From positions 28,287 to 92,286 of the forward strand of contig JAKQPV010000125.1 of NCBI GenBank assembly GCA_029564515.1: a DNA stretch of 64,000 bases. Direction: 5' to 3'. A program made the translations under genes and the position numbers. Source of the DNA: Spirochaetota bacterium. Lineage in GTDB: Bacteria > Spirochaetota > UBA4802 > UBA5550. The notes under the pieces are model-generated. The model was not told the origin of the DNA, did no database searches, and saw only the letters and a program-made list of their open reading frames with translations. This document shows positions 5,796 to 27,639 of the stretch, one piece after another. The first letter of the stretch is position 1. Each line of letters begins with the position of its first letter.

Positions 5796-7256
5796 ATGAC
5801 GGGACCGTCCGGCGCCAGGCCGGGCATCGCCGTGGGCGGCATGCGCGGCGGCTCGGGCAAGACCGTGCTCTCGCTCGGGCTCATCCGCGCGCTCACCCGC
5901 CGGGGGCTCACCGTGGCCCCCTTCAAGAAGGGGCCGGACTACATCGACCCCTCATGGCTCTCCGCCGCGGCGGGGGTCCCCTGCTACAACCTCGACCTCT
6001 ACCTTCTTGAAAACAAGGAGAACCTCCGTTCGTATCGCGACTCGAATCCCGGCGCCGACTGGGCCGTGGTCGAGGGAAACCGCGGCCTGTTCGACGGGCT
6101 TGACGCAGAAGGCTCGGCGAGCTTTGCGGAGCTGGTGAAGCTTCTCGACATTCCGCTTCTGCTCGTGATCGACTGCTCCAAGTCGAGCCGCACGGTAGCG
6201 GCCCTTGTGCGCGGGTGCGAAACCTTCGATCCGGAGCTTGCCCCGGCCGGCATCGTGCTGAACCAGGTCGCCGGCGAGCGCCACAGCCGCACCGTGGCGG
6301 AGGCTATCGCCCGCTACTGCGCGACGCCCGTGCTGGGCGCGCTCCCCCGGATGGCCGACCTCTCCCTTGACGAGCGGCGCCTGGGGATCGTGCCGACGGC
6401 GGAGCATGACGGACCGGATGCGGTCATCGAACGCCTCGCCGACGCGGTGGAGAAACATGTCGACCTGGCCGCGATCATGAAGATAGCGGAGTCGTGGAGT
6501 ACAAGCCCCGTTTACACCCCCGGCCCCCTCCGGCCTTCCCTCGACGTTGCGCGGGACAGGCCGGCCGCCTCCCCCGCGCGCGGGGGAGGACGGGATGGCA
6601 GCGGTCCCGTACGCCGCGTGGGCGTGGTACGCGACGCGGCCTTCCACTTTTACTACGCCGAGAACCTTGACGCGCTTGAGCGGCAGGGGGCGGAGATCGT
6701 CGCGATCAATTCACTCGCCGACGCGGCCCCGCCCGTGATCGACGCGCTGTACATCGGCGGCGGGTTCCCGGAAAACCACGCCGGGGCCCTGAGCGGCAAC
6801 GCCGCCTTCCGCCGCGCGCTGAAAAAGCTGATCGAGGGCGGCCTGCCCGTGTACGCCGAGTGCGGCGGGCTGATCTACCTCTCCACGGCGATCACGGTCG
6901 AAGGCAGGCGCTACCCCATGACCGGGATATTCCCGCTCGAATTCGAGATGTCCGACAGGCCGGTCGGGCACGGTTACACGCTGTTCGAGGTGGACGGGGA
7001 TAACCCCTTTTACCGGAAGGGCACCGCGGTACGGGGGCACGAGTTCCGCTACGCGCGTATCATCAACCCGGATGCGGCCGCGGACGTACGCACCGTGCTC
7101 GCGATGCGGCGCGGGGCCGGCGTGGGAGGCGGAAGGGACGGAATGCTCGTGAAGAACTGCCTGGCGGTATTCTCGCACACCCACGCGGGGAGCGCGGGCG
7201 CGGACTGGATCGTTTCGCTTGCCGGCGCGGTGCCGGCCGGCATTACTGCTTCCTGA
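5796..7256 (+). CDS. dsrN: DsrN, cobyrinic acid a,c-diamide synthase-like (siroheme amidase)
   Basis: 486 aa of CobB/CbiA type: GGSGKTVLSLGLIRAL, PFKKGPDYIDP, and a C-terminal glutamine amidotransferase part (YAECGGLIYL). It is located in the dsr operon. Confidence 0.8.
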   Translation: MTGPSGARPGIAVGGMRGGSGKTVLSLGLIRALTRRGLTVAPFKKGPDYIDPSWLSAAAGVPCYNLDLYLLENKENLRSYRDSNPGADWAVVEGNRGLFDGLDAEGSASFAELVKLLDIPLLLVIDCSKSSRTVAALVRGCETFDPELAPAGIVLNQVAGERHSRTVAEAIARYCATPVLGALPRMADLSLDERRLGIVPTAEHDGPDAVIERLADAVEKHVDLAAIMKIAESWSTSPVYTPGPLRPSLDVARDRPAASPARGGGRDGSGPVRRVGVVRDAAFHFYYAENLDALERQGAEIVAINSLADAAPPVIDALYIGGGFPENHAGALSGNAAFRRALKKLIEGGLPVYAECGGLIYLSTAITVEGRRYPMTGIFPLEFEMSDRPVGHGYTLFEVDGDNPFYRKGTAVRGHEFRYARIINPDAAADVRTVLAMRRGAGVGGGRDGMLVKNCLAVFSHTHAGSAGADWIVSLAGAVPAGITAS

Positions 7257-7866
7257 GCCCCTCGAGAAAGCTCTCTACCGCGTAATTGATAAGGTCACGG
7301 TACTTCTCGTTCCTGAGGATGGTTTTTTCCAGCTTGTTGAACTGTATCAGGCCGTGGAGCGTGCCCCAGAGGCAGAGGGAATGGTTCAGCGTGTTGACCT
7401 TCCTGAAATCGCCCGACCTGATGCCTGCCTCGACCGAGTCTATCAGATGATTCAGGACCTTGCCGCCGGTCTTGTCGATCCTGCTCTTGAGCCGCGCCGG
7501 GAACACCTGTCCGGGCGACGACAGGAAATAGGTTATGATGTCGTAATAGCTCTTGTTCTTTTCGCTGAAATCGACGTAGGCCGTTGCGATGGCCCTGATC
7601 CTTTCCGCGGGCGTCGCGGCCGCGGCCACGACCTCGGACACGAACCGGTTCAGGATCTCGAGCCCCTCCTCCTGCAGCGCGGCGAAAATGTCTTCCTTGT
7701 TATGGTAATAGAGGTAGATCGTTCCCACGCTCAGCTCGGAGAGCTTCGCGATCTGGTTGACCGTGGTCTCGTGCAGCCCCTTCTTGAGCAGCAGCGTCCG
7801 GGCCGCTTTTAATATGTGGTTTTTCCTCGCTTCCTTTTCCCGCTCACGTCTTTCTGTCGCGCCCAT
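7243..7866 (-). CDS. TetR family transcriptional regulator
   Basis: 207 aa from ATG 7866: MGATERREREKEARKNHILKAARTLLLKKGLHETTVNQIAKLSELSVGTIYLYYHNKEDIF (TetR HTH). Only this C-terminal part of track ORF 7243..8853 is credible. It is the last gene of the minus-strand operon, and its 3' end overlaps the dsrN 3' end by 14 nt (convergent). Confidence 0.85.
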   Translation of the reverse strand: MGATERREREKEARKNHILKAARTLLLKKGLHETTVNQIAKLSELSVGTIYLYYHNKEDIFAALQEEGLEILNRFVSEVVAAAATPAERIRAIATAYVDFSEKNKSYYDIITYFLSSPGQVFPARLKSRIDKTGGKVLNHLIDSVEAGIRSGDFRKVNTLNHSLCLWGTLHGLIQFNKLEKTILRNEKYRDLINYAVESFLEGLRKQ

Positions 7867-7889
7867 ATAACCGAATCCCCCCACATGTG

Positions 7890-8720
7890 TTAATGCGAGC
7901 CGGCATCCATGTCTATTTCCGATGCCAGCTTCCCGGCCATGATCTTCTCGTACAGCGCCGGGGCCAGCCGGTGCAGGTAATAGGTGATCCTGCCGACCGT
8001 CGTCAGGACAACGATGTCCTTCCGCGCTGCCGCTCCCCGGAACACCGCCTCCGCGACGCTGTCCGGCGAGTCCACCTTCCCCGCGGTCGACTGAGGGTGC
8101 GTCGTCACCTTCCCGTCCCCGCCCAGGGCCCGCGTCTGCAGATTCGTCTTCGTGAACCCGGGGCAGACCATCATGACATGCACGCCCAGCGGCTTCACCT
8201 CGGTGCGCAGGCTCTCGAAGAGCCCGTGCAGGGCGTGCTTGCTCGCGCTGTACCCGGTCCTTCCGATGAGCGGGCTGAACCCGGCCAGGCTCGATGTCAC
8301 CAGTATCAGACCCCTTCTCTCTATCAAGCTTTTTATGGCTGCATGGGCGCAATAAAGGGCGCCGAAAAAGTTGACGTCCATGACCCGGCGGTACACGGAG
8401 AGCTCGGTCTGCAAAAAGGGACTCCGCTGGGTGATCCCGGCGTTCGCCGCAAGCACGTCGATCCCTCCCCAGAGCCGGATGATCTCCTCCATGACGACCT
8501 CGCACTCGACCTGCCTGCTCACATCGCAGGTGAAGCCGGCAGCGTCGATACCCGCTGCCTCGAGCTCCCCGACCTGGGCGGCGACCCGCTTCCGGTCCAT
8601 GTCGATAACCGCGATCCGGGCGCCCTCCCTGCCGAAGCGGCGGCAGAGCGCGGCGCCGATCCCGCTCGCCCCGCCGGTCACGGCGACGACCTTGTTCTGG
8701 AAGGAAATTATATTTTTCAT
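7890..8720 (-). CDS. Short-chain dehydrogenase/reductase (SDR)
   Basis: TGGASGIGAAL Rossmann motif and catalytic S...YSASK. Confidence 0.85.
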   Translation of the reverse strand: MKNIISFQNKVVAVTGGASGIGAALCRRFGREGARIAVIDMDRKRVAAQVGELEAAGIDAAGFTCDVSRQVECEVVMEEIIRLWGGIDVLAANAGITQRSPFLQTELSVYRRVMDVNFFGALYCAHAAIKSLIERRGLILVTSSLAGFSPLIGRTGYSASKHALHGLFESLRTEVKPLGVHVMMVCPGFTKTNLQTRALGGDGKVTTHPQSTAGKVDSPDSVAEAVFRGAAARKDIVVLTTVGRITYYLHRLAPALYEKIMAGKLASEIDMDAGSH

Positions 8721-8804: not shown

Positions 8805-10097
8805 TCACCCCTCCGCCTCCAGCGTCACCTTCTCCACCTTGTCCCGGTCGCACTCGTAGAAAAACGAGCCAATGTAAAAGAGCACGGCTGCGACGACCAG
8901 GAAAGCCGGGAGCACCAGCAGTGCCTTATCGATACCGAAGGAATCCGAGAGCGAGCCGACCACTATCGGGCCCGTGGATGCGCCCAGAAGGTTCTGCACG
9001 ATGACGCACAGGGCATAGGATATGGCCCTGAGCCCCGGGTGCACCACGTCCTGCGTAACCGCTGCGGCGGCCGGAACAAAGGCAACGATAACCAGCCCCA
9101 TAAACAGGATAAACACGTACTGGATATTGCCGCTGAAGAAGATGAGCCCCACGGCGAGAAACAGGGCCGACAGGACCGCCACGACAGAGGAAAACAGGAG
9201 CCGCGCGTTCTTCCTCTTTTTAAACCACATGTCCGCGATGAACCCTCCCAGGGGGGCGCCGACCAGGGCCAGGATCATGACCGATCCTCCCTTGATCCCT
9301 GCCTGATCCATCGGCATGTTATGAATGCGGTTGAAGAAAGTCGGGAGCCAGGTCATGAGCGACGTGGTCACGAAGACCATGGCCGCGAAGCCGAAATAAG
9401 TGAATAGGAGCGAGGGAGTGTGGATGAATTCCCGGAAGATGTCCATTTTGCTCATTTTCACCTTCTGCCCGCCGGCGGCCTCCGAGGTCTTGAGCAGGTC
9501 AACCGTCTTGTAGTCCTTGACGAAGAAGAACAGGATGGCCACGATCAGGCCCGGCAGGGCGACAAGGCCGAAAGCATGACGCCAGCCGAATTCCTTGGCA
9601 ATGATACCGCCCAGGGCGATGCCCACGGCGCTCCCCAGCGGTATCGACGCGTTCCATATCCCCATCATGCGCGAGCGCTTCTCCTCCGGGTAGAGTCCGG
9701 CGAGCATTGCGGTCCCGCCGGGCGCGTATCCCGCCTCGCCCACGCCGATGACGCAGCGGGCGCCGAAAAGCTGGCCGAAGTTTTTCGTGAGAGCGCAGGC
9801 GGCCGTCGCGATGCTCCATATGACCGCCATGAGGCCGATCGTCTTCTTGCGGCTCCACCGGTCGACCAGGATGGACGCCGGTATGGTGAACATGACGATG
9901 GACCAGTAGATAGCCGAAACCAGCATGCCGCACTGCGCGTCGCTTATCCCCCACTCCTCCTTGATGTGCGGGAAGAGGGAGGTGACCACCATGCGGTCAA
10001 CATAATCGAAGAAATAGAGAAGGAACAACAGGATGAAAATATAGTTCGTGTAACCCTTTGATAATTTGTATTCCTTTGTGGCGGCCTGTTCGCTCAT
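8805..10097 (-). CDS. MFS transporter, anion:cation-symporter-like
   Basis: 430 aa with about 12 predicted TM segments. The FFDYVDRMVVTSLFP motif near TM1 is typical of organic-anion MFS importers. Confidence 0.85.
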   Translation of the reverse strand: MSEQAATKEYKLSKGYTNYIFILLFLLYFFDYVDRMVVTSLFPHIKEEWGISDAQCGMLVSAIYWSIVMFTIPASILVDRWSRKKTIGLMAVIWSIATAACALTKNFGQLFGARCVIGVGEAGYAPGGTAMLAGLYPEEKRSRMMGIWNASIPLGSAVGIALGGIIAKEFGWRHAFGLVALPGLIVAILFFFVKDYKTVDLLKTSEAAGGQKVKMSKMDIFREFIHTPSLLFTYFGFAAMVFVTTSLMTWLPTFFNRIHNMPMDQAGIKGGSVMILALVGAPLGGFIADMWFKKRKNARLLFSSVVAVLSALFLAVGLIFFSGNIQYVFILFMGLVIVAFVPAAAAVTQDVVHPGLRAISYALCVIVQNLLGASTGPIVVGSLSDSFGIDKALLVLPAFLVVAAVLFYIGSFFYECDRDKVEKVTLEAEG

Positions 10098-10130
10098 TGA
10101 GTCACCTCCTTTCAGGTTCCCGGATATTTC

Positions 10131-10155
10131 CGTCCCCGGTCTTGAACCGGGGACG
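10131..10155 (-). other. Intra-operon stem-loop (CGTCCCCGG-N7-CCGGGGACG) about 30 nt upstream of the MFS RBS
   Basis: Perfect 9-bp GC-rich stem read directly. There is no U-tract, so it may be a processing/stability element or a weak terminator. Confidence 0.35.
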
Positions 10156-10272
10156 GGTACGTCCTGTGAGCAAGGTGCGTCCGGCAGCGTGAGACACCCT
10201 GATATCTTACGCTACCCTATTGCTGCAAAACATCAAGTCTTTATCGGCCCGATGCCGAAAAAACAGGGATCG

Positions 10273-11967
10273 TTACGCCTTGTATCCGCCCAGGTTCGCC
10301 AGGGCCACGCTGCCCGGGCTTATCGTCGAGGGATCCACCATGACATTGATGCACGCGGTCTTGCCCGACTTGAAGGCGGCCTCGATCGCGGGCCGTATAT
10401 CCTCCGGTTTTTCGACGAACGCACCGAACCCGCCCAGGGCCTCGACCATTTTATCGTACCGGACGAGGCCGAGCTCGGTGCCGTCCTTGATCGCGTGGCC
10501 GAGCCGGAGCTGCTGGCTGTGCGCGATCATGCCCCAGAGCGTGTCGTTGGCCACGACTGCCACGATCGGCAGGTTGTTCCTGATGGCGGTGTGGAACTCC
10601 ATGAAGTTGAAGCCCACCGACCCGTCGCCGATGACTACGAGCACCCGCTTGTCAGGGTAAAGGAGCTTTGCAGCGTTAGCGTAGGGCAGTCCGACCGCCA
10701 GGCAGCCGTACAGGCCGTAGTCCAGGTAATGGCCGGCCTTCCGCACGGTGCGGGTCATGCCCATCCAGGTGGCGGTATCGCCCCCGTCCGCGGCCACGAT
10801 ATCGTCCTCCCGGTCCATGAAGTCGTTGATCTCGCGCGCCAGGCGGAGCGGGTGGATGGGCGCACCCTCCTTCTCCCAGTTGGGCTTCGCCTGCGCCTTG
10901 CCCGCAACGTCGGCCGCCCGGACCGTCTCCACCCATTCCGCGTACTGCTTCGCGAGCTTGGGCCCCGCCTTCCGCTCGTCCACCACGCGGACAAGCTCGG
11001 CGAGCATGGCCTTGATGTCGCTTACCACGCCCAGGTCAACCGCACGGTTGCGGCCGATCTCCTCGGCCTCGATGTCCACCTGTATGAATTTCGCCGTCTT
11101 CGGGAAGATGTCGCCGAATATGTAAAAGAGCGAAAGCCGTGAGCCCAGGAAGAGCACCAGGTCCGACTGCACGTTCGCCACGAACGATGCGCCCGGCCTG
11201 ATGGCCAGGGACGACTCGAAACAGAGGGGATGGGTGTCCGGAATGACGCCCCGTCCGCCCCCCAGCGTGAAGGCCGGGATGCCCGTCTTCTCCACGAATG
11301 CGACCAGCTCGTCGCCCGCGTCGGAATACCAGGCCCCGCTTCCCGCAATCACGATCGGCTTTTTCGCCTGGGACAGCATGTCCACGATCCTGGCAGCGCC
11401 GGCCGTGTCGACCATCCGCGCAGTAACCTCGCTCCCGTATTTCCTCACCTTCGTCATGTCCGCCGCCGCGTTCAGCATGTCGCAGGGCAGCTCCAGGTAC
11501 ACGGGACCCGGCCTGCCGTTGGCCGCATAGCGGAAGGCCATGTCGATGAATTCCGGCACCCGCTCCGCGTTATGGCATACCAGCGCCTTCTTGACCATGG
11601 GCTGGATGACCGGGAGCTGCGTCATGTCCTGCAGGTCCAGCTTCTCCGTCGTTTCCAGGCCCACGCACCCTGCGATCAGGATGACCGGCGCGTTGGAGAG
11701 CCGCGCGCTCGCTATGCCCGAGAGCGCATTGGTGAACCCCGGGCCCGCCGTGACCATCGCCACAGCCGGCTTGCGCGTCATGCGCGCCATCGCCTCGGCC
11801 ATGAACACGGCCGCCTGCTCGTGACGGGTCGCGAATATCTTGACGCCGGAGTTTTCCAGGAACTGGTAGATGGGCGTGATGTGGCCCCCGCTTATCGAGA
11901 AAATATATTTCACGCCCCGCTCGATCAGGGCGTCCGCCGCCAGTTTTCCGCCGATTATTTTTTCCAT
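10273..11967 (-). CDS. Thiamine-diphosphate-dependent enzyme, acetolactate synthase / oxalyl-CoA decarboxylase / 2-hydroxyacyl-CoA lyase-like
   Basis: 564 aa. N-terminal PYR domain (RHEQAAVFMAEAMARMT, TAGPGFTNAL), middle domain, and C-terminal ThDP motif GDGSVGFNFMEFHTAIRNNLPIVAVVANN-like (VIGDGSVGF...VVANDTLWG). The layout FIQVDIEAEEIGRN...VSDIK...YAEW recalls oxalyl-CoA decarboxylase. It is not an Xsc orthologue because it has a different C-terminus. Confidence 0.85.
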   Translation of the reverse strand: MEKIIGGKLAADALIERGVKYIFSISGGHITPIYQFLENSGVKIFATRHEQAAVFMAEAMARMTRKPAVAMVTAGPGFTNALSGIASARLSNAPVILIAGCVGLETTEKLDLQDMTQLPVIQPMVKKALVCHNAERVPEFIDMAFRYAANGRPGPVYLELPCDMLNAAADMTKVRKYGSEVTARMVDTAGAARIVDMLSQAKKPIVIAGSGAWYSDAGDELVAFVEKTGIPAFTLGGGRGVIPDTHPLCFESSLAIRPGASFVANVQSDLVLFLGSRLSLFYIFGDIFPKTAKFIQVDIEAEEIGRNRAVDLGVVSDIKAMLAELVRVVDERKAGPKLAKQYAEWVETVRAADVAGKAQAKPNWEKEGAPIHPLRLAREINDFMDREDDIVAADGGDTATWMGMTRTVRKAGHYLDYGLYGCLAVGLPYANAAKLLYPDKRVLVVIGDGSVGFNFMEFHTAIRNNLPIVAVVANDTLWGMIAHSQQLRLGHAIKDGTELGLVRYDKMVEALGGFGAFVEKPEDIRPAIEAAFKSGKTACINVMVDPSTISPGSVALANLGGYKA

Positions 11968-12035
11968 GAGTGGTACTCCTTGTATTAGTTTCTAACACCC
12001 TCCCCGCCTCCCATCAAGGGAAGGGGGGACTGTAA

Positions 12036-12872
12036 TCATAATTCCATCAACTGTCCGCCGGTAATGTTGATCGCCTGGCCGGTCATGTACGACGACGCGT
12101 CCGACGCGAGGAACGCGACGAGGTTCGCCACCTCCTCCGGGGTCCCTATGCGCCCCAGGGGTATGGTCTTGCACATCTCGACCTCCCTGTCTTCGGGCGT
12201 ACACTGGAACACCTTCGCCTCCAGCCCGAACCGCCACCGCTCCAGGTCGGTCATGATCTGTCCCGGGCAGATCGCGTTCGCCCGCACGCCCGCGCCCGCG
12301 AGCTCCTTGGCCATCACCCTGGTGAGCATGATCACGCCCGCCTTGGCGACGGCGTAGGCCCCGTTCATGACCGGCGGGAACTTGCCGGCGCGCGACGCGT
12401 TGTTCACGATGCTGGCCGGCTTCCCGAGCATGAGCGGGAGCACGGCCCGCGACATGCGGAACACGCCGTGCAGGTTGATGTCGATGGTTTTCATCCACGC
12501 GGCCTCGTCGTAGGTGTGGACCGCGGCCGGGACGCCGAACGAGGCGCCCGCGTTGTTGCAGAGGACGTCGACATGGTCGAACGCCGCCTTAACCGCATCT
12601 ATCAGCGCCGCGATGGAAGCGCCGCTCGACACGTCGACCTCCACGGCCAGGGTCTTTACCTCGAACTCCTTCGCAAGCATGCCGGCGATCTCCCGCATCT
12701 CTTCGGTGGTGCCGGTTGCAACCGGAGCGCCCGGGATAGCCGCAGCGCCCAGGTCCGCGATAATAACATTCGACCCCAGGGAGGCCAGCTTCCGCGCCAT
12801 GGCAAAGCCCATGCCGGTCTTCTTTCCCGATCCGGTGATCAGGGCCGTTTTATTCTTCAGATCTTCCAGCAT
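12036..12872 (-). CDS. Short-chain dehydrogenase/reductase (SDR)
   Basis: TGSGKKTGMGFAMARKL, NNAG, catalytic S...YAVAK, and PG...T downstream motif. It is the first gene of the operon. Confidence 0.85.
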   Translation of the reverse strand: MLEDLKNKTALITGSGKKTGMGFAMARKLASLGSNVIIADLGAAAIPGAPVATGTTEEMREIAGMLAKEFEVKTLAVEVDVSSGASIAALIDAVKAAFDHVDVLCNNAGASFGVPAAVHTYDEAAWMKTIDINLHGVFRMSRAVLPLMLGKPASIVNNASRAGKFPPVMNGAYAVAKAGVIMLTRVMAKELAGAGVRANAICPGQIMTDLERWRFGLEAKVFQCTPEDREVEMCKTIPLGRIGTPEEVANLVAFLASDASSYMTGQAINITGGQLMEL

Positions 12873-12921
12873 GGTGCACCTCCTCCAGAACTATAAAAAA
12901 TGAAAAAAATTGTTGTAGAAA

Positions 12922-12952
12922 TAAATATTATTCATATTATGAACAATATTCA
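12922..12952. promoter_or_regulatory. Two tandem palindromic boxes (TAAATATTATTCA 12922-12934; TGAACAATATTCA 12940-12952) upstream of the SDR/ThDP/MFS operon
   Basis: Aligns box-for-box with 16258..16288, with the same 18-bp centre spacing, conserved boxes and a non-conserved spacer. It lies in an AT-rich divergent promoter region. Confidence 0.45.
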
Positions 12953-13065
12953 CTATATTTAATACATGAGAACCTTCGTCCCCATGTCAATAGAAAATGA
13001 TATTTTCACGGATACCCGGGACCCCGGAGCAACCGGACCCGCTATCACCGGCAGGGAGGCGGGGC

Positions 13066-13305
13066 ATGCCCGGCAGGTTTGAGCTGATATACGGCTATGT
13101 CCACTGCCGCGGCGAAACGGCCTACAGCGCGGGTTTCGTTGAGACAGAGGAAGAGGCGGCCATGTGGGTCCGCTCCATGCAGGAAGGGCGCCTGCCGCGC
13201 CCCCGCGTCCCGGACGAGGAGCCGATCCGCACATGCGGCGCTTCCTTCTGCCCCCTGAAAAGCCAGCATCCCTGGTTCTCATACCGCTTTGTTGCATACG
13301 GCTAA
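13066..13305 (+). CDS. Small hypothetical protein (79 aa)
   Basis: ATG 13066 is preceded by GGGAGG. The GC3-rich codon usage resembles neighbouring genes (MPGRFELIYGYVHCRGETAYSAGFVETEEEAAMWVRSMQEG...). No recognisable domain. Its stop overlaps the ackA stop. Confidence 0.35.
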   Translation: MPGRFELIYGYVHCRGETAYSAGFVETEEEAAMWVRSMQEGRLPRPRVPDEEPIRTCGASFCPLKSQHPWFSYRFVAYG

Positions 13306-14492
13306 TTGCCCTCCTCCAGGGCTTCCGCTACTTCCCGCGCGATCTGCAGCTCCTCGTTCGCCGGAATGACCAGCCCCCGCACCGCGCTTCCCGGCGCGGT
13401 GATGATCTCCGCGTTCGCGCCGTTCGCCGCATCGTCGAGCACGAGCCCCAGGTAGCCGAAGTGCGAGAGCACCTCGCGCCTGAGATACGCGGAGTTCTCG
13501 CCGATGCCGCCGGTGAACACGATCGCGTCCACCCCGCCCATTTCCGCGCAGTACCCGCCGATGAGGCAGGTGATCCGGTTGACAAGCACGTCGCTCGCAA
13601 GCCTCGCGGCCCGGTCGCCCGAGCGCGCCTTCTCTTCTATTATCTTATAATGGCTGTCCATGCCGGAGAGCCCCAGGAGGCCGGACTCGCGGTTGACCAT
13701 CGCCCTGATCCGCTCCGGGGCGAGCCCGCGGTCCATCAGAAAAAAGACGACCTCCGGGTCAAAGGACCCGCTGCGGGTCCCCATGGGGAGCCCCTCGAGC
13801 GGCGTGAAGCCCATCGAGGTGTCCACGCTCTTTCCGCCCCGCACGGCGCACACGCTTGACCCGTTCCCCAGGTGGCAGGTGACGGTCTTCATGCTCCCGC
13901 TGTCGCGGCCGAGCAGCTCCGCCGCGCGGCGCGCCGCGTACCTGTGGCTGGTCCCGTGGAACCCGTACTTGCGTATGCCGTGATCGTCGCAGAGCTTCGT
14001 GGGGAGCGCGTACCGGTAGACCGCCTCCGGCATGGTCCGGTGAAAGGCCGTGTCGAATACCGCGTACTGGGGAGTGCCGGCAAGCAGGCCGGTGAGGGCG
14101 TCGATGCAGGCAAGCGCCACCGGGTTGTGCAGGGGGGCAAGTCCGGATATGCCCCGCAGGTATTCCATCATTTCGGGCGTGACGGGCGCGGCGCTGCCGT
14201 ACTTTTCTCCGCCGTGCACCACGCGGTGCCCGATCGCGTCGATGTCGCGGCCGCCGGAAACAAGGCCCGCGTCCCGGAGGATGACGAGCATGTCGCCGAT
14301 TGCCTCGCGGTGGTCCCGTATCGTCATGGGCGTGGATGACACGGCGCCGAGGATCCCGGTCTTCCGGATGCACTCCGGTTTCCCCGCGGCCTCGCCGATG
14401 TCCAGGTAGTGGCCCCGGGCCGCGGGCTCATCCCCCCGGTAGAGGGTGAACTTGAGCGAGCTGCTCCCCGCGTTGATGACCAGTATGTTCAC
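13302..14492 (-). CDS. ackA: Acetate kinase
   Basis: (GTG)NILVINAGSSSLKFTLY..., HRVVHGG, and FHGTSH motifs. It starts 15 nt after the xsc stop. Confidence 0.9.
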   Translation of the reverse strand: MNILVINAGSSSLKFTLYRGDEPAARGHYLDIGEAAGKPECIRKTGILGAVSSTPMTIRDHREAIGDMLVILRDAGLVSGGRDIDAIGHRVVHGGEKYGSAAPVTPEMMEYLRGISGLAPLHNPVALACIDALTGLLAGTPQYAVFDTAFHRTMPEAVYRYALPTKLCDDHGIRKYGFHGTSHRYAARRAAELLGRDSGSMKTVTCHLGNGSSVCAVRGGKSVDTSMGFTPLEGLPMGTRSGSFDPEVVFFLMDRGLAPERIRAMVNRESGLLGLSGMDSHYKIIEEKARSGDRAARLASDVLVNRITCLIGGYCAEMGGVDAIVFTGGIGENSAYLRREVLSHFGYLGLVLDDAANGANAEIITAPGSAVRGLVIPANEELQIAREVAEALEEGN

Positions 14493-14507
14493 GGCCGCCC
14501 GGCCCCG

Positions 14508-16232
14508 CTATACCGCGCTCAGGTGCTTGTACTTGGGCAGGTACCGGACCGGCGGCTTGAACGCGTCGCGCCGGAACGGCTCGGCGAGCACCTTCTCGCC
14601 GCCCTCGATCACCGCGTTGATGACCGCCGCCTTGCCGCACTTCACCGCTTCCGCCACCGCGTCCTTCACGTCCGCGTAGTTCTCCACGGTGATGCCTGTC
14701 GCGCCCATGTCGCGCGCGAGCTGGGCGTAGTCCGGGTTCGTGAGCAGGTCGGCTCCTACAAAGCGGCTCTTGAAGAAGTCAATCTGGTTCTTCTTCTCGG
14801 CCCCCCACTCGTGGTTGTTGAACACGACCGCGATCACCGGGATGTTTTCCCGCACCGCGGTCATCACCTCCGAGAGGCCGCTGATGCCGTACGCGCCGTC
14901 GCCCTGGAGGGCAAAGACCGGCGTGTCAGGCGCCGCCATCTTCGCGCCCATGGCCGCGCCGTACGCGAACCCGCAGTTGCCCCAGGAGAGCGCGGATATG
15001 TGGCGGCGCGGCTCCGAGAATGTAAGATAGCTGTTGCAGATCGAGGAGTTGTTGCCGATGTCCGTGGCCACGATGGAGCCGGCCGGTATCGCGTCGGTAA
15101 GCTCCTTGATGAAGCGCCGCGGGTGCATGAGCTTGTTTGTGGACGAAGACCAGCCGTCGAGCTCTTCCTTCCACACCGCCTTTTCCTTCGCGATGTCCGC
15201 GAGGCGGGCCGCGTCCTTCTTCCGGCCCTTGTCCGCGGCAAGCAGGGCGGCCAGGAGCTCCTTCGCGAACTCGCGCGCGTCCGCCATTACGCCCAGGTCA
15301 ATCTTCCTGGAGATGCCGAGCTGCGAGCCGTCGATGTCCACCTGTATGAGCTTCGCCGTTTTCGGCCAGTAGTCGATGTCGTACTGCGGCAGGGTGCCGA
15401 AGGGCCCGAGCCTGGTGCCGAGGGCCAGGACCACGTCCGCCTTCGCGATGGAGCGCATGGCGGCCTTGGACCCGCAATAGCCGATCGGGCCCACTGCCAG
15501 CTCGTGGTCCGCGGGGAAGGTGTCGTTGTGGAGATAGGTGTTCACCACCGGCGCGGTCAGGTACTCGGCAAGGGCCTTCACCTCGGCGTGGCCGTCGGCC
15601 ATGGATACGCCGCCGCCGGCCAGGATCACCGGGTACTTCGCACGGGCGAGCAGCTCGGCCGCCGTCCGCACCTGCCCGACCGTCCCGCCGCCGTAGTTGA
15701 CGTTCGCGGTGGGATATATATCGCAGTCAATGTCGCCGTAGAAAAAGTCGCGCGGGATGTTGAGCTGCGCCGGCCCGCACAGGAGCTTGGCCATGTAGAA
15801 GCAGCGCCGCGTCAGCTCCGCCATCCGCTCGGGACGGTTCACCCTCACCTGGTACTTGGTGCACTTCTCGAACCAGGGCATCTGGTCCAGCTCCTGGAAC
15901 CCGCCGGTGCCGATGCCCATGCTACCGGTTTCCGGAGTGATGGCGATCACGGGAGAGTGGGCCCAGAAAGCGGCGGTCACGGCCGAGATGAAGTTGGCGG
16001 CACCCGGACCGTTCTGGCCGATACAGCACTGGGGACGGCCCGAGACGCGGGCGTACCCGTCCGCGGCGTGTGCTGCCGCCTGCTCGTGCGCGACCGATAT
16101 GAACCGGATTCCCGCGGCCGGGAACAGGTCCAGCGCGTCCATGTACGCGCTGCCGACGATCCCGAATATATCGCGGATTCCTTCGGCAACAAGGGTCTCA
16201 ACAAAGGCTTCAGAGGGTGTCATTTTTGTCAT
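14508..16232 (-). CDS. xsc: Sulfoacetaldehyde acetyltransferase (ThDP-dependent; sulfoacetaldehyde + Pi -> acetyl phosphate + sulfite)
   Basis: 574 aa. Collinear with remembered Xsc sequences: MTPSEAFVETLVAEGI, QNGPGAANFISA, GGFQELDQM, AQLNIPRDFF, GPIGYCGSKAAM, ADVVLALGTRLGPFGTLPQYDIDYWPK, IQVDID, ATDIGNNSSI, GDGAYGIS, EWGAEKKNQ, and the diagnostic C-terminus LAEPFRRDAFKPPV. Confidence 0.8.
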   Translation of the reverse strand: MTKMTPSEAFVETLVAEGIRDIFGIVGSAYMDALDLFPAAGIRFISVAHEQAAAHAADGYARVSGRPQCCIGQNGPGAANFISAVTAAFWAHSPVIAITPETGSMGIGTGGFQELDQMPWFEKCTKYQVRVNRPERMAELTRRCFYMAKLLCGPAQLNIPRDFFYGDIDCDIYPTANVNYGGGTVGQVRTAAELLARAKYPVILAGGGVSMADGHAEVKALAEYLTAPVVNTYLHNDTFPADHELAVGPIGYCGSKAAMRSIAKADVVLALGTRLGPFGTLPQYDIDYWPKTAKLIQVDIDGSQLGISRKIDLGVMADAREFAKELLAALLAADKGRKKDAARLADIAKEKAVWKEELDGWSSSTNKLMHPRRFIKELTDAIPAGSIVATDIGNNSSICNSYLTFSEPRRHISALSWGNCGFAYGAAMGAKMAAPDTPVFALQGDGAYGISGLSEVMTAVRENIPVIAVVFNNHEWGAEKKNQIDFFKSRFVGADLLTNPDYAQLARDMGATGITVENYADVKDAVAEAVKCGKAAVINAVIEGGEKVLAEPFRRDAFKPPVRYLPKYKHLSAV

Positions 16233-23887: not shown

Positions 23888-24046
23888 TATTGCTATAAAC
23901 TCCATGGGAAAATGGGCCCGGGCAGCATGATACGGCTTGCCTCGCCGCTTTGCACCCCGCAATGACGTGCCGGGGCATCACCTGGACCATCATGACAGCA
24001 TAATTCAACTTCGCGTCAGATTTATCAATAACATTTTCTGGAGTTT

Positions 24047-24083
24047 CCCCGGTCCTCTTCGGGGTGAGAGGAGAGGACCGGGG
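24047..24083 (-). terminator. 12-bp perfect stem-loop (CCCCGGTCCTCT ... AGAGGACCGGGG) downstream of the GRE fusion gene
   Basis: Read directly, 37-73 nt after the stop at 24120. There is no clear U-tract, so terminator function is tentative. Confidence 0.4.
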
Positions 24084-24119
24084 CGTACGGAGGATTTGAT
24101 GCTGAAGCCGGACCCGGGA

Positions 24120-27100
24120 CTAGTTGTAGCAGGTCCTGTTGATTATGATCTTTTTAAGCTCGTCGGAAAGATCGTTAAAGTAGGCGCAGTAACCGGCGAC
24201 GCGGACCAGGAGATACGGGTGGTTTTCCGGATGGTCGTACGCGTCCAGCAGTATCTCCTTGTTGATGACGTTGGGCTGGAACTGCATGCCCCCCTTCTTG
24301 AAGTAGGTGCTGATGATCCCCGAGAGGTTCCTGACGCCGCCGGGACCCTGGAACAGCGACGAATCGATCGTAAAGGTGACCGTGGTTCCGTTGGGGGCGT
24401 AATCCACGAAATCGACCCCGGCGACGGAATTCAGGGACGACAGCAGGTCCGCCATCTGCATGCCGTAATGGGGCGCGACGCTGTTGGCAAGGGGGACTCC
24501 CTTCAGCCTGCCGGACGGCAGGGCGGGGGTCTTCGCGCCGTACACGTCGCTCACGTTCAGCGCGTAGTACCCGGCGGAGTAGATGCCGTTGCGGGGGCAG
24601 TTCGGCACCGATTTCAGCGCGTCGACATAGACCTGGAGCGCCCGGTTGACCCACTCGACCGCCTCGGCCGAGTCGTCCTCCCCGAATTTCGGCACCGCCT
24701 GCAGGGCCGCCCGCACCTTCGCGTGCTTCTCTCCCTCGAAATTATGGTCGATGGCGTCGATGACCTCGTGAAGCGTGTGGAGGCGTTTCTTGAACACGAC
24801 CTGGTCGATGGCGTGGAGGGAATCAGCGGCGTCGGTGATCCCCACGGCCTGGATGCCGCTGCTGTTGAGCTGCGCGCCGCCCTCGTTCACGTCTTTACCG
24901 CTTTCTACGCAGCCCCGGGAAAGGGACGATGCGAGCGGCGTTGTGAAATGGGTGCGGATCACCTTCTCTATCTTCTGGTGATCGGAAAGTATGGCATTCG
25001 CCAGGACATTCATGCGCTCCTGGTAGCGGACGAGCAGCTCGTCCATGCTCGCGGGCGGATTGTAGCGGGACCGCGCCCGCTTCAGCTTCTTCCGCTCGCG
25101 CCTGTCCGCGTATTTCGTGCGCACGTAGGTTGCGAACCTGTTGTTGTACCGGAAATTGTATTCCACGAACTTGGCCGCCATCTTGCCCACCTGCTCGCGG
25201 AACCCGATGTTCCACAGGTCATGCTCCTCGCCCTTCAGGGCCTGCAGGAGGGGCATCGTGACGTTCATGTTCGCGCAGTCGGTATTGCCGTAATGGTCGT
25301 CCGAGGCGTTCGGCTCGACGCACCCCACGATCGCGTAGTTTCTGGCACTCTCCTCCGTGACGGGGTAATGCTTCTGTATGGTCTCGAGGTAGATCTCGTC
25401 GTTGTACAGGGCCGGCATGGGCGCGCCGTTGATGTACACCTCCGCGAGCCGGTCCAGGTATTCGGCCGGGCTGTCCTTGTGGATGCGCGCGGTCATGTTC
25501 ACCGCGTACGGCTGCAGCTCGCAGATGTCCAGCAGCATGTAGGTCAGGTCGTTGGTCGCGTCCTTCCCGTCCCTGCCCAAACCGCCGGCAGTCACCGACT
25601 GGTCCGTGGACATGGTCTCGAACAGCCTCCCGATGCGCAGGTAGGTGTCACCGTCGTTGACGAGTATCGCCTCGTCCATCTTGAGGATGAACAGGGCGAG
25701 GAGCTCTTTCGCCTTCTCGTACGTGATGATCCCCGCCTCAAGGTCCCTCTTGTAATAGGGATAGAGGATCTGGTCCAGCCGTCCCAGCGATACCGCGTTC
25801 TCATAGGACTCGATGCACAGCGCGATATGGATGAATGTCATGCTCTGGAGCGCCTCGTGGTAGGTGCGGGCCGGGTACCGGGGGACCTGTTTGCAGATCC
25901 CCGCCATCTCCTCCAGCTCCTTCTTCCGGGCCGGGTCCTGCTCCTTCGCGGCCATGTCCGCCAGGTGCGCGGCATACCGGTCGGCGAACGTCTCCAGTGC
26001 CCGGAGCGCAATGATCGCCCCGTCGTAAAAATCCTGGTTGTTGCCGGGCTTCGCCTTCTTCATCATCCGTATCTCCTCGATGATCCCGGTCGTACCGAGC
26101 TGGAGCATACGCTCGAAGTTAACGATAAAGTGGGCTATCGCGGCCATGTTATTGTTGAACCCGACATTCGGCTCCGAGGCGCGCGCGATCATCAGCACCA
26201 TGTCCGACAATTTTTTATTCACCCTGCCCAGGAGGCCGCGCCTCATCCAGAAGGGGAAAATGCGGAAATAGAAATGCAGTATGTCCTTCCACGAGCACCT
26301 GAACGGGACCGGGGTCTGGCGGTTGATCTGGTGCAGGATCGAGGTAAACAGCACGCCGTAATGCTCCTCCCATACCTGCCCGCCCTTCCTCTTCGAGGTG
26401 AAGTTGCCCACCAGGAGCTCGTCCGGGTAGACGATGACCGACTTGTTCGCGAGCACGTGAGCGAGGCGCTCGGACCGGTGTATCGGCGTCGGTTTCCCGA
26501 AGCCGTTCTTCCGGTAATATTCGGTCTTAAGGCGCGAGGCCTCGAAACAGAGATGGTGCCCGCTCTCCCTGATCGCTTTCTGTATGTCGTGCACGCGCTT
26601 CGTGAATTCGGCCCTGTGCCGGGAAGCGTCCAGGTCAAAGCAGGCGGCCGAGATGCCCAGGGACCTGAAAAGCACGATCGCATTTTTTATCGATTCGAGG
26701 CTCTGTTCCGGCGTGATGTTGAGCGGCTCCTGCTCTATGCCCAGGCGCTTTGCCTTGTCTTCGTACATGTTGTGGTATTTCAAAAGCTCGATCGACCGGT
26801 ACCCGATCGAATCGAGAAACGCGGCCGCCGCCCTGATGTTTTGTTCCGAGTCATTAAGGCCGGGCACCATTACCATGCGAAAGCTGACGCCCGCCTTCAG
26901 GTCGAGCAGCTTCCGGATATTGCCGCGAATCAATTCGCCGCTCTGTTTCGTCAGCTTTTTATGGAGGAGGTCGTCTCCCGCCGCTTTCAGGTCAACCAGG
27001 AACAGGTCGATGTACGGCGCGACCCTGCTGACGGTTTCCCACGGAACATGCAGGGAGGTCTCGGCGGAGACATGGATACCCCGCTCTTTCAACGATTTCA

Positions 27101-27464
27101 GCAGGCGCTCGAGACTGTCCGCATTCTGGAGGAGCGGGTCGCCGCCGCTCAGGGTAACGCCCCCGCCGGTCGTCACGTAATACTCGCTGTCACGCGATAT
27201 GACATCCATGATGTCCGCAATCGAGCAATCGCTGTCAGGCGCCATCTCCGGATTGACGGACTGCGCCTCCGGGTTCTGGCACCAGAGGCACCGCAGAGCG
27301 CACCCCTGAAAAAAAATGACGGTGCGGATGCCCGGACCGTCATGAACGCAGGTGCGCTGTATTTTTAATACTCTCAGCCTGTCTTCCGCCATCCCGGCGG
27401 TTTTTTTGAAGGACAGATCGATTTCCGGCTGTGCTGCTTGTTGTTGAACGTGAGCGGTCTCCAT
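24120..27464 (-). CDS. Single-polypeptide fusion: glycyl-radical activating enzyme (radical SAM, PflA-type) + PFL2/eliminase-type glycyl radical enzyme
   Basis: One uninterrupted frame. Activating-enzyme part: DGPGIRTVIFFQGCALRCLWCQNPE (CX3CX2C), GGGVTLSGGDP, VPGLNDSE, ELLKYHN. GRE part, from about 26620: VYPDELLVGNF, IVGCVEPN (Cys-x-Glu loop), and C-terminal LLVRVAGYCAYF (Gly codon 24192-24194). I prefer ATG 27464 (GGGAG RBS); the track start 27623 adds 53 AT-rich, non-coding-looking codons. Confidence 0.85.
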   Translation of the reverse strand: METAHVQQQAAQPEIDLSFKKTAGMAEDRLRVLKIQRTCVHDGPGIRTVIFFQGCALRCLWCQNPEAQSVNPEMAPDSDCSIADIMDVISRDSEYYVTTGGGVTLSGGDPLLQNADSLERLLKSLKERGIHVSAETSLHVPWETVSRVAPYIDLFLVDLKAAGDDLLHKKLTKQSGELIRGNIRKLLDLKAGVSFRMVMVPGLNDSEQNIRAAAAFLDSIGYRSIELLKYHNMYEDKAKRLGIEQEPLNITPEQSLESIKNAIVLFRSLGISAACFDLDASRHRAEFTKRVHDIQKAIRESGHHLCFEASRLKTEYYRKNGFGKPTPIHRSERLAHVLANKSVIVYPDELLVGNFTSKRKGGQVWEEHYGVLFTSILHQINRQTPVPFRCSWKDILHFYFRIFPFWMRRGLLGRVNKKLSDMVLMIARASEPNVGFNNNMAAIAHFIVNFERMLQLGTTGIIEEIRMMKKAKPGNNQDFYDGAIIALRALETFADRYAAHLADMAAKEQDPARKKELEEMAGICKQVPRYPARTYHEALQSMTFIHIALCIESYENAVSLGRLDQILYPYYKRDLEAGIITYEKAKELLALFILKMDEAILVNDGDTYLRIGRLFETMSTDQSVTAGGLGRDGKDATNDLTYMLLDICELQPYAVNMTARIHKDSPAEYLDRLAEVYINGAPMPALYNDEIYLETIQKHYPVTEESARNYAIVGCVEPNASDDHYGNTDCANMNVTMPLLQALKGEEHDLWNIGFREQVGKMAAKFVEYNFRYNNRFATYVRTKYADRRERKKLKRARSRYNPPASMDELLVRYQERMNVLANAILSDHQKIEKVIRTHFTTPLASSLSRGCVESGKDVNEGGAQLNSSGIQAVGITDAADSLHAIDQVVFKKRLHTLHEVIDAIDHNFEGEKHAKVRAALQAVPKFGEDDSAEAVEWVNRALQVYVDALKSVPNCPRNGIYSAGYYALNVSDVYGAKTPALPSGRLKGVPLANSVAPHYGMQMADLLSSLNSVAGVDFVDYAPNGTTVTFTIDSSLFQGPGGVRNLSGIISTYFKKGGMQFQPNVINKEILLDAYDHPENHPYLLVRVAGYCAYFNDLSDELKKIIINRTCYN

Positions 27465-27598
27465 AGATAACTCCCGGGAAATGGTATCGTCGCCCCGCAA
27501 ACCGACCCAGCGGGTACCGGCCGGCCGGACGAATCTTACTATTGGACTTATAATAGCCATAAGGGAAGGCATTGTCGTCCGGTAAGATAAATCCGGAT

Positions 27599-27639
27599 AA
27601 AAAAAAGTGCCCGCCGTGGTCAAGACGGGATTGACGGGC
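27599..27639 (-). terminator. Intrinsic-terminator-like hairpin + U8 inside the 5' leader of the GRE fusion gene
   Basis: Minus-strand RNA: GCCCGUCAAUCCCGUCUUGACCACGGCGGGCAC-UUUUUUUU. The 3' arm GGCGGG(C) can pair with either of two upstream CCCGUC copies. The G-U wobble means pairing works only on the minus-strand transcript. No minus-strand gene ends upstream of it. Confidence 0.4.

Follow-up and report, generated by a model that had tools for sequence, protein, structure and literature searches.

Here we analysed a window of 64,000 nucleotides (nt) of DNA from a Spirochaetota bacterium (GenBank assembly GCA_029564515.1, contig JAKQPV010000125.1, positions 28,287 to 92,286 of the forward strand), and in particular one of its minus-strand genes, which encodes in a single polypeptide a radical-SAM activating enzyme (AE, or activase) followed by a glycyl radical enzyme (GRE). 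The open frame extends over 24120..27623 (-) without internal stop, and the ATG at 27464 gives a protein of 1114 amino acids (aa) that agrees with its homologues in length and start methionine when aligned. A first-pass annotation, made from the sequence by itself, had described one frame holding two complete enzymes, and this description proved right: the open reading frame (ORF) is uninterrupted, both halves are complete by Pfam, and the catalytic and cofactor residues tested are conserved. Profile searches matched Fer4_12 (residues 42-130) and Radical_SAM (49-207) in the N-terminal part, which also fits a GRE-activase model, and the PFL-like and Gly_radical families in the remainder, and the motifs that the annotation had singled out (CX3CX2C, the linker, IVGCVEPN and the glycyl radical codon) lie where Table 1 lists them. 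The protein is identical to NCBI entries HOD14377.1 and MBP6992061.1, which carry the annotation 'radical SAM protein [Spirochaetota bacterium]'.

The gene appears to be monocistronic, because a hairpin follows its stop codon, which is a possible transcript end, and a promoter-like site stands ahead of the next gene (Table 1). On the 5' side, a terminator-like hairpin (CCCGTC...GGCGGG) followed by T7 lies at 27600-27629 (-), about 140 nt from the ATG; there is no same-strand gene upstream of it, and it could be a leader attenuator. An Rfam search for a leader riboswitch gave no match, either 5' of the window gene or at three homologous loci. An antisense 1143-aa 'shadow' ORF (23937-27368, +) covers nearly the whole fused gene, and conserved antisense ORFs turned up in the clustering of loci too; the shadow ORF is most likely a codon-bias artefact of a GC-rich gene and no real gene. 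The window contains no tRNA genes.

Table 1. Features of the fused activase-GRE gene and of the distant xsc module, in window coordinates.
Feature	Position	Strand	Basis and remarks
Fused AE-GRE coding sequence	24120..27464	minus	1114 aa; TAG stop at 24120-24122
Ribosome-binding site GGGAG	27471..27475	minus	6 nt 5' of ATG 27464-27462; read directly from sequence
Variable N-terminal extension, residues 1-28	27381..27464	minus	weakly conserved; missing from 1101-aa forms; pLDDT 24-28, predicted disordered
Radical-SAM activase domain, residues ~29-275	26640..27380	minus	DGPGIR, CX3CX2C, GGxTxSGG(D/E), E135, D158, K160, R196, H231; without ferredoxin-like insert
CX3CX2C, C55/C59/C62	27279..27302	minus	predicted ligands of the SAM-binding [4Fe-4S] cluster; invariant 39/39
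Interdomain linker core, residues 276-288	26601..26639	minus	contains FDLDASRHRAE (~26607-26639)
PFL-like GRE barrel, residues 288-975	24540..26603	minus	Pfam (PF02901, E 2.7e-136); Foldseek
His445, beta-1 substrate-contact site	26130..26132	minus	hand-mapped alignment; invariant
Thiyl loop Cys715-Val-Glu717 (CXE; IVGCVEPN)	25314..25322	minus	C715 codon 25320-25322; both residues invariant
Family-specific insertion, residues ~745-806	25047..25232	minus	alignment break, predicted (AlphaFold2) helices, charge
Glycyl radical domain, residues 993-1097	24174..24488	minus	Gly_radical (PF01228), E 8.6e-21
Gly1091 codon, predicted radical site, loop RVAGYCAYF	24192..24194	minus	invariant 39/39
Hairpin GGTCCTCT-(13 nt)-AGAGGACC	24051..24079	minus	40 nt 3' of the stop codon; consensus-level support
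Promoter-like site ahead of next gene	24028..24000	minus	consensus-level support
Xsc	14508-16232	minus	TIGR03457, 772 bits vs cut-off 676
Acetate/propionate-family kinase	13302-14492	minus	
Short-chain dehydrogenase/reductase (SDR)	12036-12872	minus	
Second thiamine diphosphate (ThDP) enzyme	10273-11967	minus	meets no equivalog
MFS_1 transporter	8805-10097	minus	

The fusion is genuine and is conserved across its family. A protein search of ~5.8 billion clustered proteins returned 568 matches at E≤1e-10, and the best 120 of these 568 clusters, which stem from NCBI, JGI, ENA and Logan assemblies, are all 1058-1139 aa long and 67-75% identical, with the same domains; all four Pfam domains were called in 119 of the best 120, P0118 being without the Fer4_12 call. 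When 1.84 billion representatives clustered at 50% identity were scanned exhaustively, the family appeared as one full-length representative (P0045) with fragments, and the next full-length matches were ~41% identical. A genomic scan restricted to one genome per species placed the gene in Smithella, Syntrophaceae and Desulfomonilia, in Myxococcota, Bacteriovoracaceae and Hydrogenedentota, in Leptospira and other Spirochaetota, in Oscillospiraceae, Christensenellales and other Clostridia, and in two Asgard archaeal metagenome-assembled genomes (MAGs; L025 and L030), some of the fused genes standing on contigs of 1-2.7 Mb. Identity across different phyla is 62-75%, and the overall range of the family, which takes in Thermodesulfobacteriota, Spirochaetota, Myxococcota, Clostridia and the two Asgard MAGs, is 50-75%; at 28-36% identity most relatives proved on inspection of their ORFs to be unfused pairs of AE and GRE genes that tblastn had joined. 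The fused clade, whose activase has no ferredoxin-like insert (see below), comprises 48 full-length ORFs among the loci examined, all with an AGYC glycyl radical loop, so that the architecture recurs in databases both in more than 120 clusters and in these genomic ORFs. Conservation was counted over 39 non-redundant full-length genomic members. Invariant in all of them are C55, C59, C62, E135, D158, K160 and R196 of the activase, whose residue 109 is always D or E, and H445, E555, N556, A557, C715, E717, D729, Y966, Y967, G1091 and C1093 of the GRE, and Asp621 is kept in 35 of the 39. An assembly, frameshift or gene-calling artefact, to which the annotation of some database siblings as separate 'partial' radical SAM and PFL-family fragments might point, is ruled out for the family, because independent assemblies, made from many samples and phyla, preserve the unbroken frame, the catalytic residues are invariant on either side of the junction, and the fragmentary siblings sit on short or broken contigs.

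Residues 40-261 of the activase half align end to end with the E. coli activase PFL-AE (3C8F/8FO0). The alignment keeps the Gly-loop-binding motif DGPGIR in register with its counterpart, and likewise the cysteines of the cluster, the DxK, R and H residues and the GGE-type SAM motif; the last of these reads GGD in the window protein and has D or E across the family. The first-pass annotation had called this half a complete activase of PflA type. Its completeness and its PFL-AE-like motifs were borne out but its PflA type was not: the score with the PflA model TIGR02493 is 151.3 bits, below the cut-off of 231.75, whereas the GRE-activase model TIGR02494 gives 217 bits against a cut-off of 174, in two stretches that flank a missing insert. 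That insert, a ferredoxin-like domain with eight extra cysteines, is typical of non-PFL activases without strictly defining them. Its absence, which had also been claimed, is clear: there are 38 residues and one Cys between CX3CX2C and GGxTxSGG in the window protein and 35-38 residues with at most two Cys across the clade, against 88-91 residues and 7-9 Cys in the relatives, and alignment with an insert-bearing fusion (P0122) leaves a clean gap of ~50 residues exactly at its two CX2CX2CX3C motifs. Because the TIGR02494 score exceeds that of PflA, we infer that the activase half is an eliminase-type AE from which the insert was lost, and no PflA orthologue. According to a review of GREs from the Drennan laboratory (June 2026), only PFL-AE and RNR-AE are without a ferredoxin domain (PMC13450708). 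In an Asgard MAG (LC30, locus L079) we also observed a separate 267-aa activase without insert, with 55 residues and no Cys after the cluster motif, whose ORF ends 4 nt before an unfused GRE gene with the Gly loop RVAGYSDY; an insert-less AE beside a non-PFL GRE is therefore rare yet not unique to the fused clade.

Several features set this clade apart beyond the fusion itself. In each of the 39 members the whole connector (residues 263-290) measures 28-29 residues, with a mean column identity of 0.59 and conserved positions, and its residues 277-284 have pLDDT values below 50 in an AlphaFold2 (AF2) model that was built from a 26-sequence alignment, shallow in diversity. The Gly loop reads R(V/I)AGYC(A/S)Y, where relatives have SGYS, and the invariant Cys1093, two residues after the radical glycine, is a hallmark of the family. 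The very basic insertion reported after the Cys loop was confirmed: it adds ~40 residues after the Cys-loop strand, breaks the HMMER alignment from ~462 to ~520 of the GRE part, and stands where propanediol dehydratase (PD), glycerol dehydratase (GDH) and the PFL2 of A. fulgidus (AfPFL2) have only ~20 residues. Its first half is conserved (LQALKGEExDLWN) and its second half is variable and rich in Arg and Lys (T783-Y801 in the window protein), the segment 775-806 having a net charge of +3 to +11 (median +7) in the 39 members; helices at 755-770 and 776-798 form a predicted helical hairpin of moderate confidence in the AF2 model. The fixed length of the connector, the private Gly loop, the uniform loss of the insert and the family-specific insertion together suggest that the two halves became co-adapted after their fusion.

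The distant relatives indicate how such a fusion may have arisen. The GRE gene is directly preceded by a separate AE gene, with the insert, at no fewer than 14 distant loci, and in nine AE-GRE pairs the gap between stop and start is only -37 to +4 nt, the AE (~300 aa) overlapping the GRE gene in five (L064, L065, L069, L071, L076) and ending 1-4 nt from it in four (L067, L072, L077, L081). A single frameshift, or the loss of a single stop codon, would turn such overlapping or abutting pairs into a fusion. Insert-bearing AE-GRE fusions do exist, at loci L054 and L058 and in the database proteins P0122, P0124 and P0246, and in a neighbour-joining tree of GRE domains, which has no support values, P0122 clusters with unfused GREs and apart from the window clade; because of this grouping, read-through fusion of AE-GRE pairs has probably happened more than once. 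In the window clade an overlapping AE gene, directly upstream, probably fused with its GRE gene, and the AE then lost its ferredoxin-like insert. Since the gene stands alone, in unrelated neighbourhoods, and retains 62-75% identity across phyla, its distribution fits the spread of a single-gene module that needs no partner gene and would pass readily from one lineage to another. The N-terminal partner of a GRE is not always an activase: P0140 (943 aa) has an SCP2 sterol-carrier-like domain there, and P0162, P0182, P0151, P0165 and P0207 (~990-1024 aa) have N-terminal regions of ~220 residues without a Pfam match.

Whether the fusion carries mechanistic consequences has to be weighed against the simpler explanation that overlapping genes were read through and the AE still acts as a free AE would, possibly in trans on other copies or on other GREs. 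The frequency of overlapping or abutting unfused pairs among the related loci, and the occurrence of fusions in at least two places of the distance tree, speak for this explanation, and the low-confidence residues of the linker may be flexible. A precedent also exists in the eukaryotic NrdD-NrdG fusions, which were reported from sequence in 2010 and interpreted as favouring horizontal transfer (PMC3019208), that is, as an aid to gene transfer. A connector held at constant length with conserved positions across 39 sequences from several phyla, the clade-wide loss of the insert, the clade's own AGYC loop and its own insertion weigh against such a read-through, and we regard a fusion without consequence as a possibility to be taken seriously, though not as the expected one.

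The surroundings of the gene say little about its substrate. Its neighbours in the window are genes for a TolC-like protein, a cupin, TrkAH, a PIN-PhoH protein and a divergent RND pump; none of these stands beside it in three other genomes, and ORF clustering over 86 loci found no broadly conserved neighbour and no separate AE, microcompartment shell gene or aldehyde dehydrogenase. Reading the substrate from operon context was consequently rejected, with no conserved neighbour and only two lineage-specific hints. The first is a GntR/FCD regulator, weakly LldR/PdhR/FadR-like, the same-strand gene immediately 5' of the fused gene in 10 loci of the Smithella clade (L009, at 7203-7925, and L010, L011, L015, L017, L019, L020, L031, L046 and L049), where it is the sole recurrent neighbour. 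The second is a cation symporter of the GPH (glycoside-pentoside-hexuronide) family, near the fused gene in L026 (4148-5563), L032 (6468-7919), L029 (12570-14108), L055 (6323-7729), L057 (3346-4761) and L078 (3876-5540), with a Crp/Fnr regulator and a CehA/McbA-type PHP metallohydrolase also present in the Christensenellales loci of this set. Both associations hint weakly at a carboxylate- or glycoside-like ligand, and the GntR/FCD regulator is a possible route to an inducer or substrate. Two observations in these neighbourhoods are unrelated to the GRE or stand by themselves: on a Smithella-like contig (L003, 7568-7738, -) an M-box (Mg2+) riboswitch of 136 bits lies upstream of an Nramp gene and belongs to that gene, which is next to the fused gene on the opposite strand, and in the window the PIN-PhoH gene is a fusion of a PIN domain with a PhoH-like ATPase (PF13638 + PF02562; 17296-18684, -), between the xsc cluster and the TrkAH genes.

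The GRE half was likened by the first-pass annotation to the 1,2-eliminases on account of its Cys-x-Glu (CXE) loop, and the loop does place it with the eliminases and isomerases, since C715 and E717 are invariant and CXE on the Cys loop marks GRE eliminases and isomerases (PMC13450708). By sequence score the nearest solved relatives are roughly equidistant from it: PD (5I2A, 330 bits; 9RCO, 329), AfPFL2 (329) and GDH (321), followed by CutC (300), PflD (277), HypD (268), YbiW (266), HpsG (6LON, 254) and IslA (222). The X-succinate synthases fall far under the eliminases (MasD 152 bits, BSS 120), and no genes for their small subunits occur near the window gene or at the clustered loci. Foldseek searches with the AF2 model reproduce this order, with PflD and YbiW at ranks 13 and 16; the TM-score is ~0.8 when normalised to the target (PD, GDH, AfPFL2) and ~0.6 when normalised to the query, and no solved chain therefore covers both domains. 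The subfamily model for PFL2/glycerol dehydratase (TIGR01774) aligns over profile positions 3-783 of 786 with 486.6 bits, below its cut-off of 678.2. In a HMMER alignment mapped by hand, GDH Cys433, Glu435, His164, Asp447 and Tyr640 correspond to Cys715, Glu717, His445, Asp729 and Tyr967 of the window protein; the GDH residues that we take to be defining are His164, Asp447, Tyr640 and His281-Ser282, in part after the June 2026 review (PMC13450708). The pocket motif ESYENAVS resembles ENYEQAIS of AfPFL2. At the beta-1 site the equivalent residues are His164 in GDH, His160 in HypD, Asp216 in CutC and Gln193 in IslA (PMC8473560), and in our mapping His445 takes the place of CutC Asp216, and Ala441 that of HypD Arg156, four residues before His160. 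Because a His occupies this site, as in the C-O-cleaving enzymes, the probable chemistry is in our view a 1,2-elimination of the dehydratase type, on a polar substrate that would be new; dehydration as the specific reaction is a more tentative assignment, which we would place slightly short of an even chance.

Two other chemistries have to be considered for an enzyme with these residues. One is the isomerisation or ring opening of a sugar derivative, as by YbiW and PflD on anhydro-sugar phosphates. Isomerases carry CXE as well, PflD and YbiW are among the solved relatives, a GPH-family transporter stands near the gene in the 6 Clostridia loci listed above, in varied positions and orientations, and the invariant Glu555 and Asn556 together with Asp621 would suit a polyhydroxylated substrate. 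PD, GDH and AfPFL2 nevertheless outscore both of these enzymes, and the transporter is limited to one lineage and absent from the window and from most loci, so that we consider such an activity improbable. Somewhat more improbable still is a C-N lyase that would apply CutC-like chemistry to a different amine, an amino alcohol. The CXE loop would allow it, and an ammonium group could be held in the predicted pocket by the acidic residues Glu555, which is invariant, and Asp621 (35 of 39), yet the site of CutC Asp216 has the His of the C-O-cleaving enzymes, the CutC model TIGR04394 gives 301 bits against a cut-off of 1050, and neither genes for amine or ethanolamine utilisation nor microcompartments appear in the context of the window gene or of the other loci.

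The first-pass annotation had offered, as one attractive but unproven possibility in a dsr/xsc organism, a C-S-cleaving sulfonate lyase of the IslA/HpsG kind. Such a lyase, similar to IslA, IseG or HpsG, would supply sulfite beside the xsc genes. The xsc module itself (8805-16232, -) is genuine: besides a true Xsc it has an SDR, an MFS transporter and an acetate kinase, and its presence suggests breakdown of a C2 sulfonate by way of acetyl phosphate in this Spirochaetota MAG. Its link to the fused gene did not stand, however: the module lies 8-14 kb away, with Xsc at 8 kb, the PIN-PhoH, TrkAH, cupin and TolC-like genes stand in between, and at the 85 other loci neither ThDP enzymes nor sulfonate genes are recurrent neighbours of the fused gene. 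HpfG and HpsG are nominally the best equivalog matches of the GRE half (373 and 353 bits), but these scores are about one third of the 1000-bit cut-offs and barely above those of other eliminases, and IslA is among the more distant solved relatives. The sulfonate group is anchored in IslA, IseG and HpsG by two Arg and one Gln (Arg189, Gln193 and Arg678 in IslA; PMC13450708; PMC8473560). In the window protein the positions of IslA Arg189 and Gln193 are Ala441 and His445, and the beta-8 strand, GYYALN, has no Arg; because this Arg/Gln/Arg triad is absent, a sulfonate lyase is not supported, and we judge it very unlikely.

Dehydratase-type elimination remains the favoured chemistry, and from the conserved residues a sequence of events can be proposed. 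The N-terminal domain would bind one [4Fe-4S] cluster through C55, C59 and C62, together with S-adenosylmethionine; one-electron reduction would generate a 5'-deoxyadenosyl radical that would abstract a hydrogen from Gly1091 of its own chain or of the second subunit in a GRE dimer. The glycyl radical would in turn give a thiyl radical on Cys715, which would take a hydrogen from the substrate's carbinol carbon; Glu717 would deprotonate the hydroxyl, and His445, with Asp729 and Tyr967, would help the vicinal leaving group to depart. The likeliest reaction of this kind would be a dehydration that yields an aldehyde or ketone from a small, polar metabolite resembling a diol or polyol.

We consider it probable that the window protein is a functional, self-activating GRE of the eliminase/isomerase type. 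Several points weigh against this assignment. Every equivalog model scores far under its cut-off, including those of HpsG (NF048011, 353 bits vs 1000) and HypD (NF043068, 338 bits vs 1100). In the hand-mapped alignment Gly280-His281-Ser282 of GDH become Glu555-Asn556-Ala557 and GDH Tyr339 becomes Asp621; with these pocket residues replaced, the substrate should be something other than glycerol or propanediol, and cleavage of a C-N bond or opening of a ring is possible. The AF2 model is of moderate quality (pLDDT 69, pTM 0.63) and poor at the Cys loop, the Gly domain and the barrel core, and many of the taxonomic assignments derive from MAG binning, which may mislabel short contigs. Finally, a 1:1 ratio of AE to PFL accelerates both the formation and the loss of the radical (PMC13450708), and a permanent tether may therefore carry costs or have a regulatory role.

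A more far-reaching proposal, which we put forward with considerable doubt, is that the clade is obligately self-activating, its activase docking by way of the fixed connector and perhaps the basic insertion, and installing, and possibly re-installing or quenching, the radical in cis or on the dimer partner without auxiliary clusters, in the service of an undescribed GRE reaction on a common intracellular metabolite. If this were true, the structure of an AE:GRE complex could for the first time be approached with a tractable natural system. Structurally, GRE activation has so far been seen only in PFL-AE bound to a 7-residue peptide, the exit of the glycyl radical domain from the barrel and its return are 'not well understood', insolubility and reconstitution of activases are the main bottleneck, and 'more stable GRE:AE interfaces' and catalytically relevant states are wanted (PMC13450708); the docking of separate PFL and PFL-AE was the subject of an eLife study in 2014. 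A conserved, covalent, 1:1 AE-GRE protein with a single cluster is hence a candidate for cryo-electron microscopy and for studies of cis and trans activation, and a template for the engineering of self-activating GREs. Because the clade dispenses with the ferredoxin-like domain, it also bears on the role of that domain in other activases, and it adds an uncharacterised GRE clade to syntrophs, sulfate reducers, spirochaetes, clostridia and Asgard archaea.

The architecture had been thought uncharacterised by the first-pass annotation, with GREs otherwise activated in trans. For PFL-type fusions this view held, as we found no description of them in full-text literature searches, whose coverage leaves out most papers in subscription journals, and the words 'fused' and 'fusion' are absent from the June 2026 review (PMC13450708); fusions as such are, however, not unprecedented, given NrdDG in 2010 and the insert-bearing proteins described above. 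As a known two-component system joined into one polypeptide, the fused protein represents a variant not yet characterised; it does not demonstrate a new mechanism but offers a good target for experiments.

Comparison with the known systems delimits what is particular to it. NrdDG likewise joins a GRE and a radical-SAM activase in one frame and is likewise known from sequence only, but its GRE is of the RNR-like class, its name implies the order GRE then AE, opposite to that of the window protein, and it occurs in a few fungi and oomycetes (PMC3019208), whereas the window family is prokaryotic and broad. The insert-bearing fusions (P0122, P0124, P0246, L054 and L058) have the same order of AE then GRE, a PFL2-type GRE and the CXE loop; they are only 35-41% identical to the window protein, with an insert of ~88 residues and 8-9 Cys and the Gly loop RVSGYSAY, and the AE parts of P0122 and the window protein are 35% identical. 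PflA (3C8F/3CB8/8FO0) shares with the window activase the single cluster, the lack of a ferredoxin insert and the motifs over residues 40-261, but the window activase falls below the PflA equivalog cut-off, scores better as a PFL2-type AE and is fused to a non-PFL GRE. IslA/IseG and HpsG have the GRE eliminase fold and the CXE loop in common with the window GRE, which is without the sulfonate triad of IslA (222 bits) and HpsG (6LON, 254 bits). AfPFL2 (2F3O), a solved GRE of debated function, also has the CXE loop, its TNQ resembles TDQ of the window protein, and it is archaeal, as are the Asgard MAGs that carry the fused family, but it is a stand-alone GRE without the insertion, and overall it resembles the window GRE no more closely than PD or GDH do. 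GDH (C. butyricum, 1R8W/1R9D) and PD (R. inulinivorans, 5I2A/5I2G; 9RCO-9RCR) are the best matches in sequence and fold, though at only ~26-27% identity, and share CXE, the beta-1 His and the equivalents of Asp447 and Tyr640. They differ in the pocket motif (ES(N/S)GHS, against ESYENA in the window protein) and in the Gly loop (AGYS, against AGYC), and, whereas they are served by separate activases, the window GRE, which has no microcompartment or aldehyde-processing genes around it, carries an attached, insert-less activase and a ~40-residue insertion after its Cys loop.

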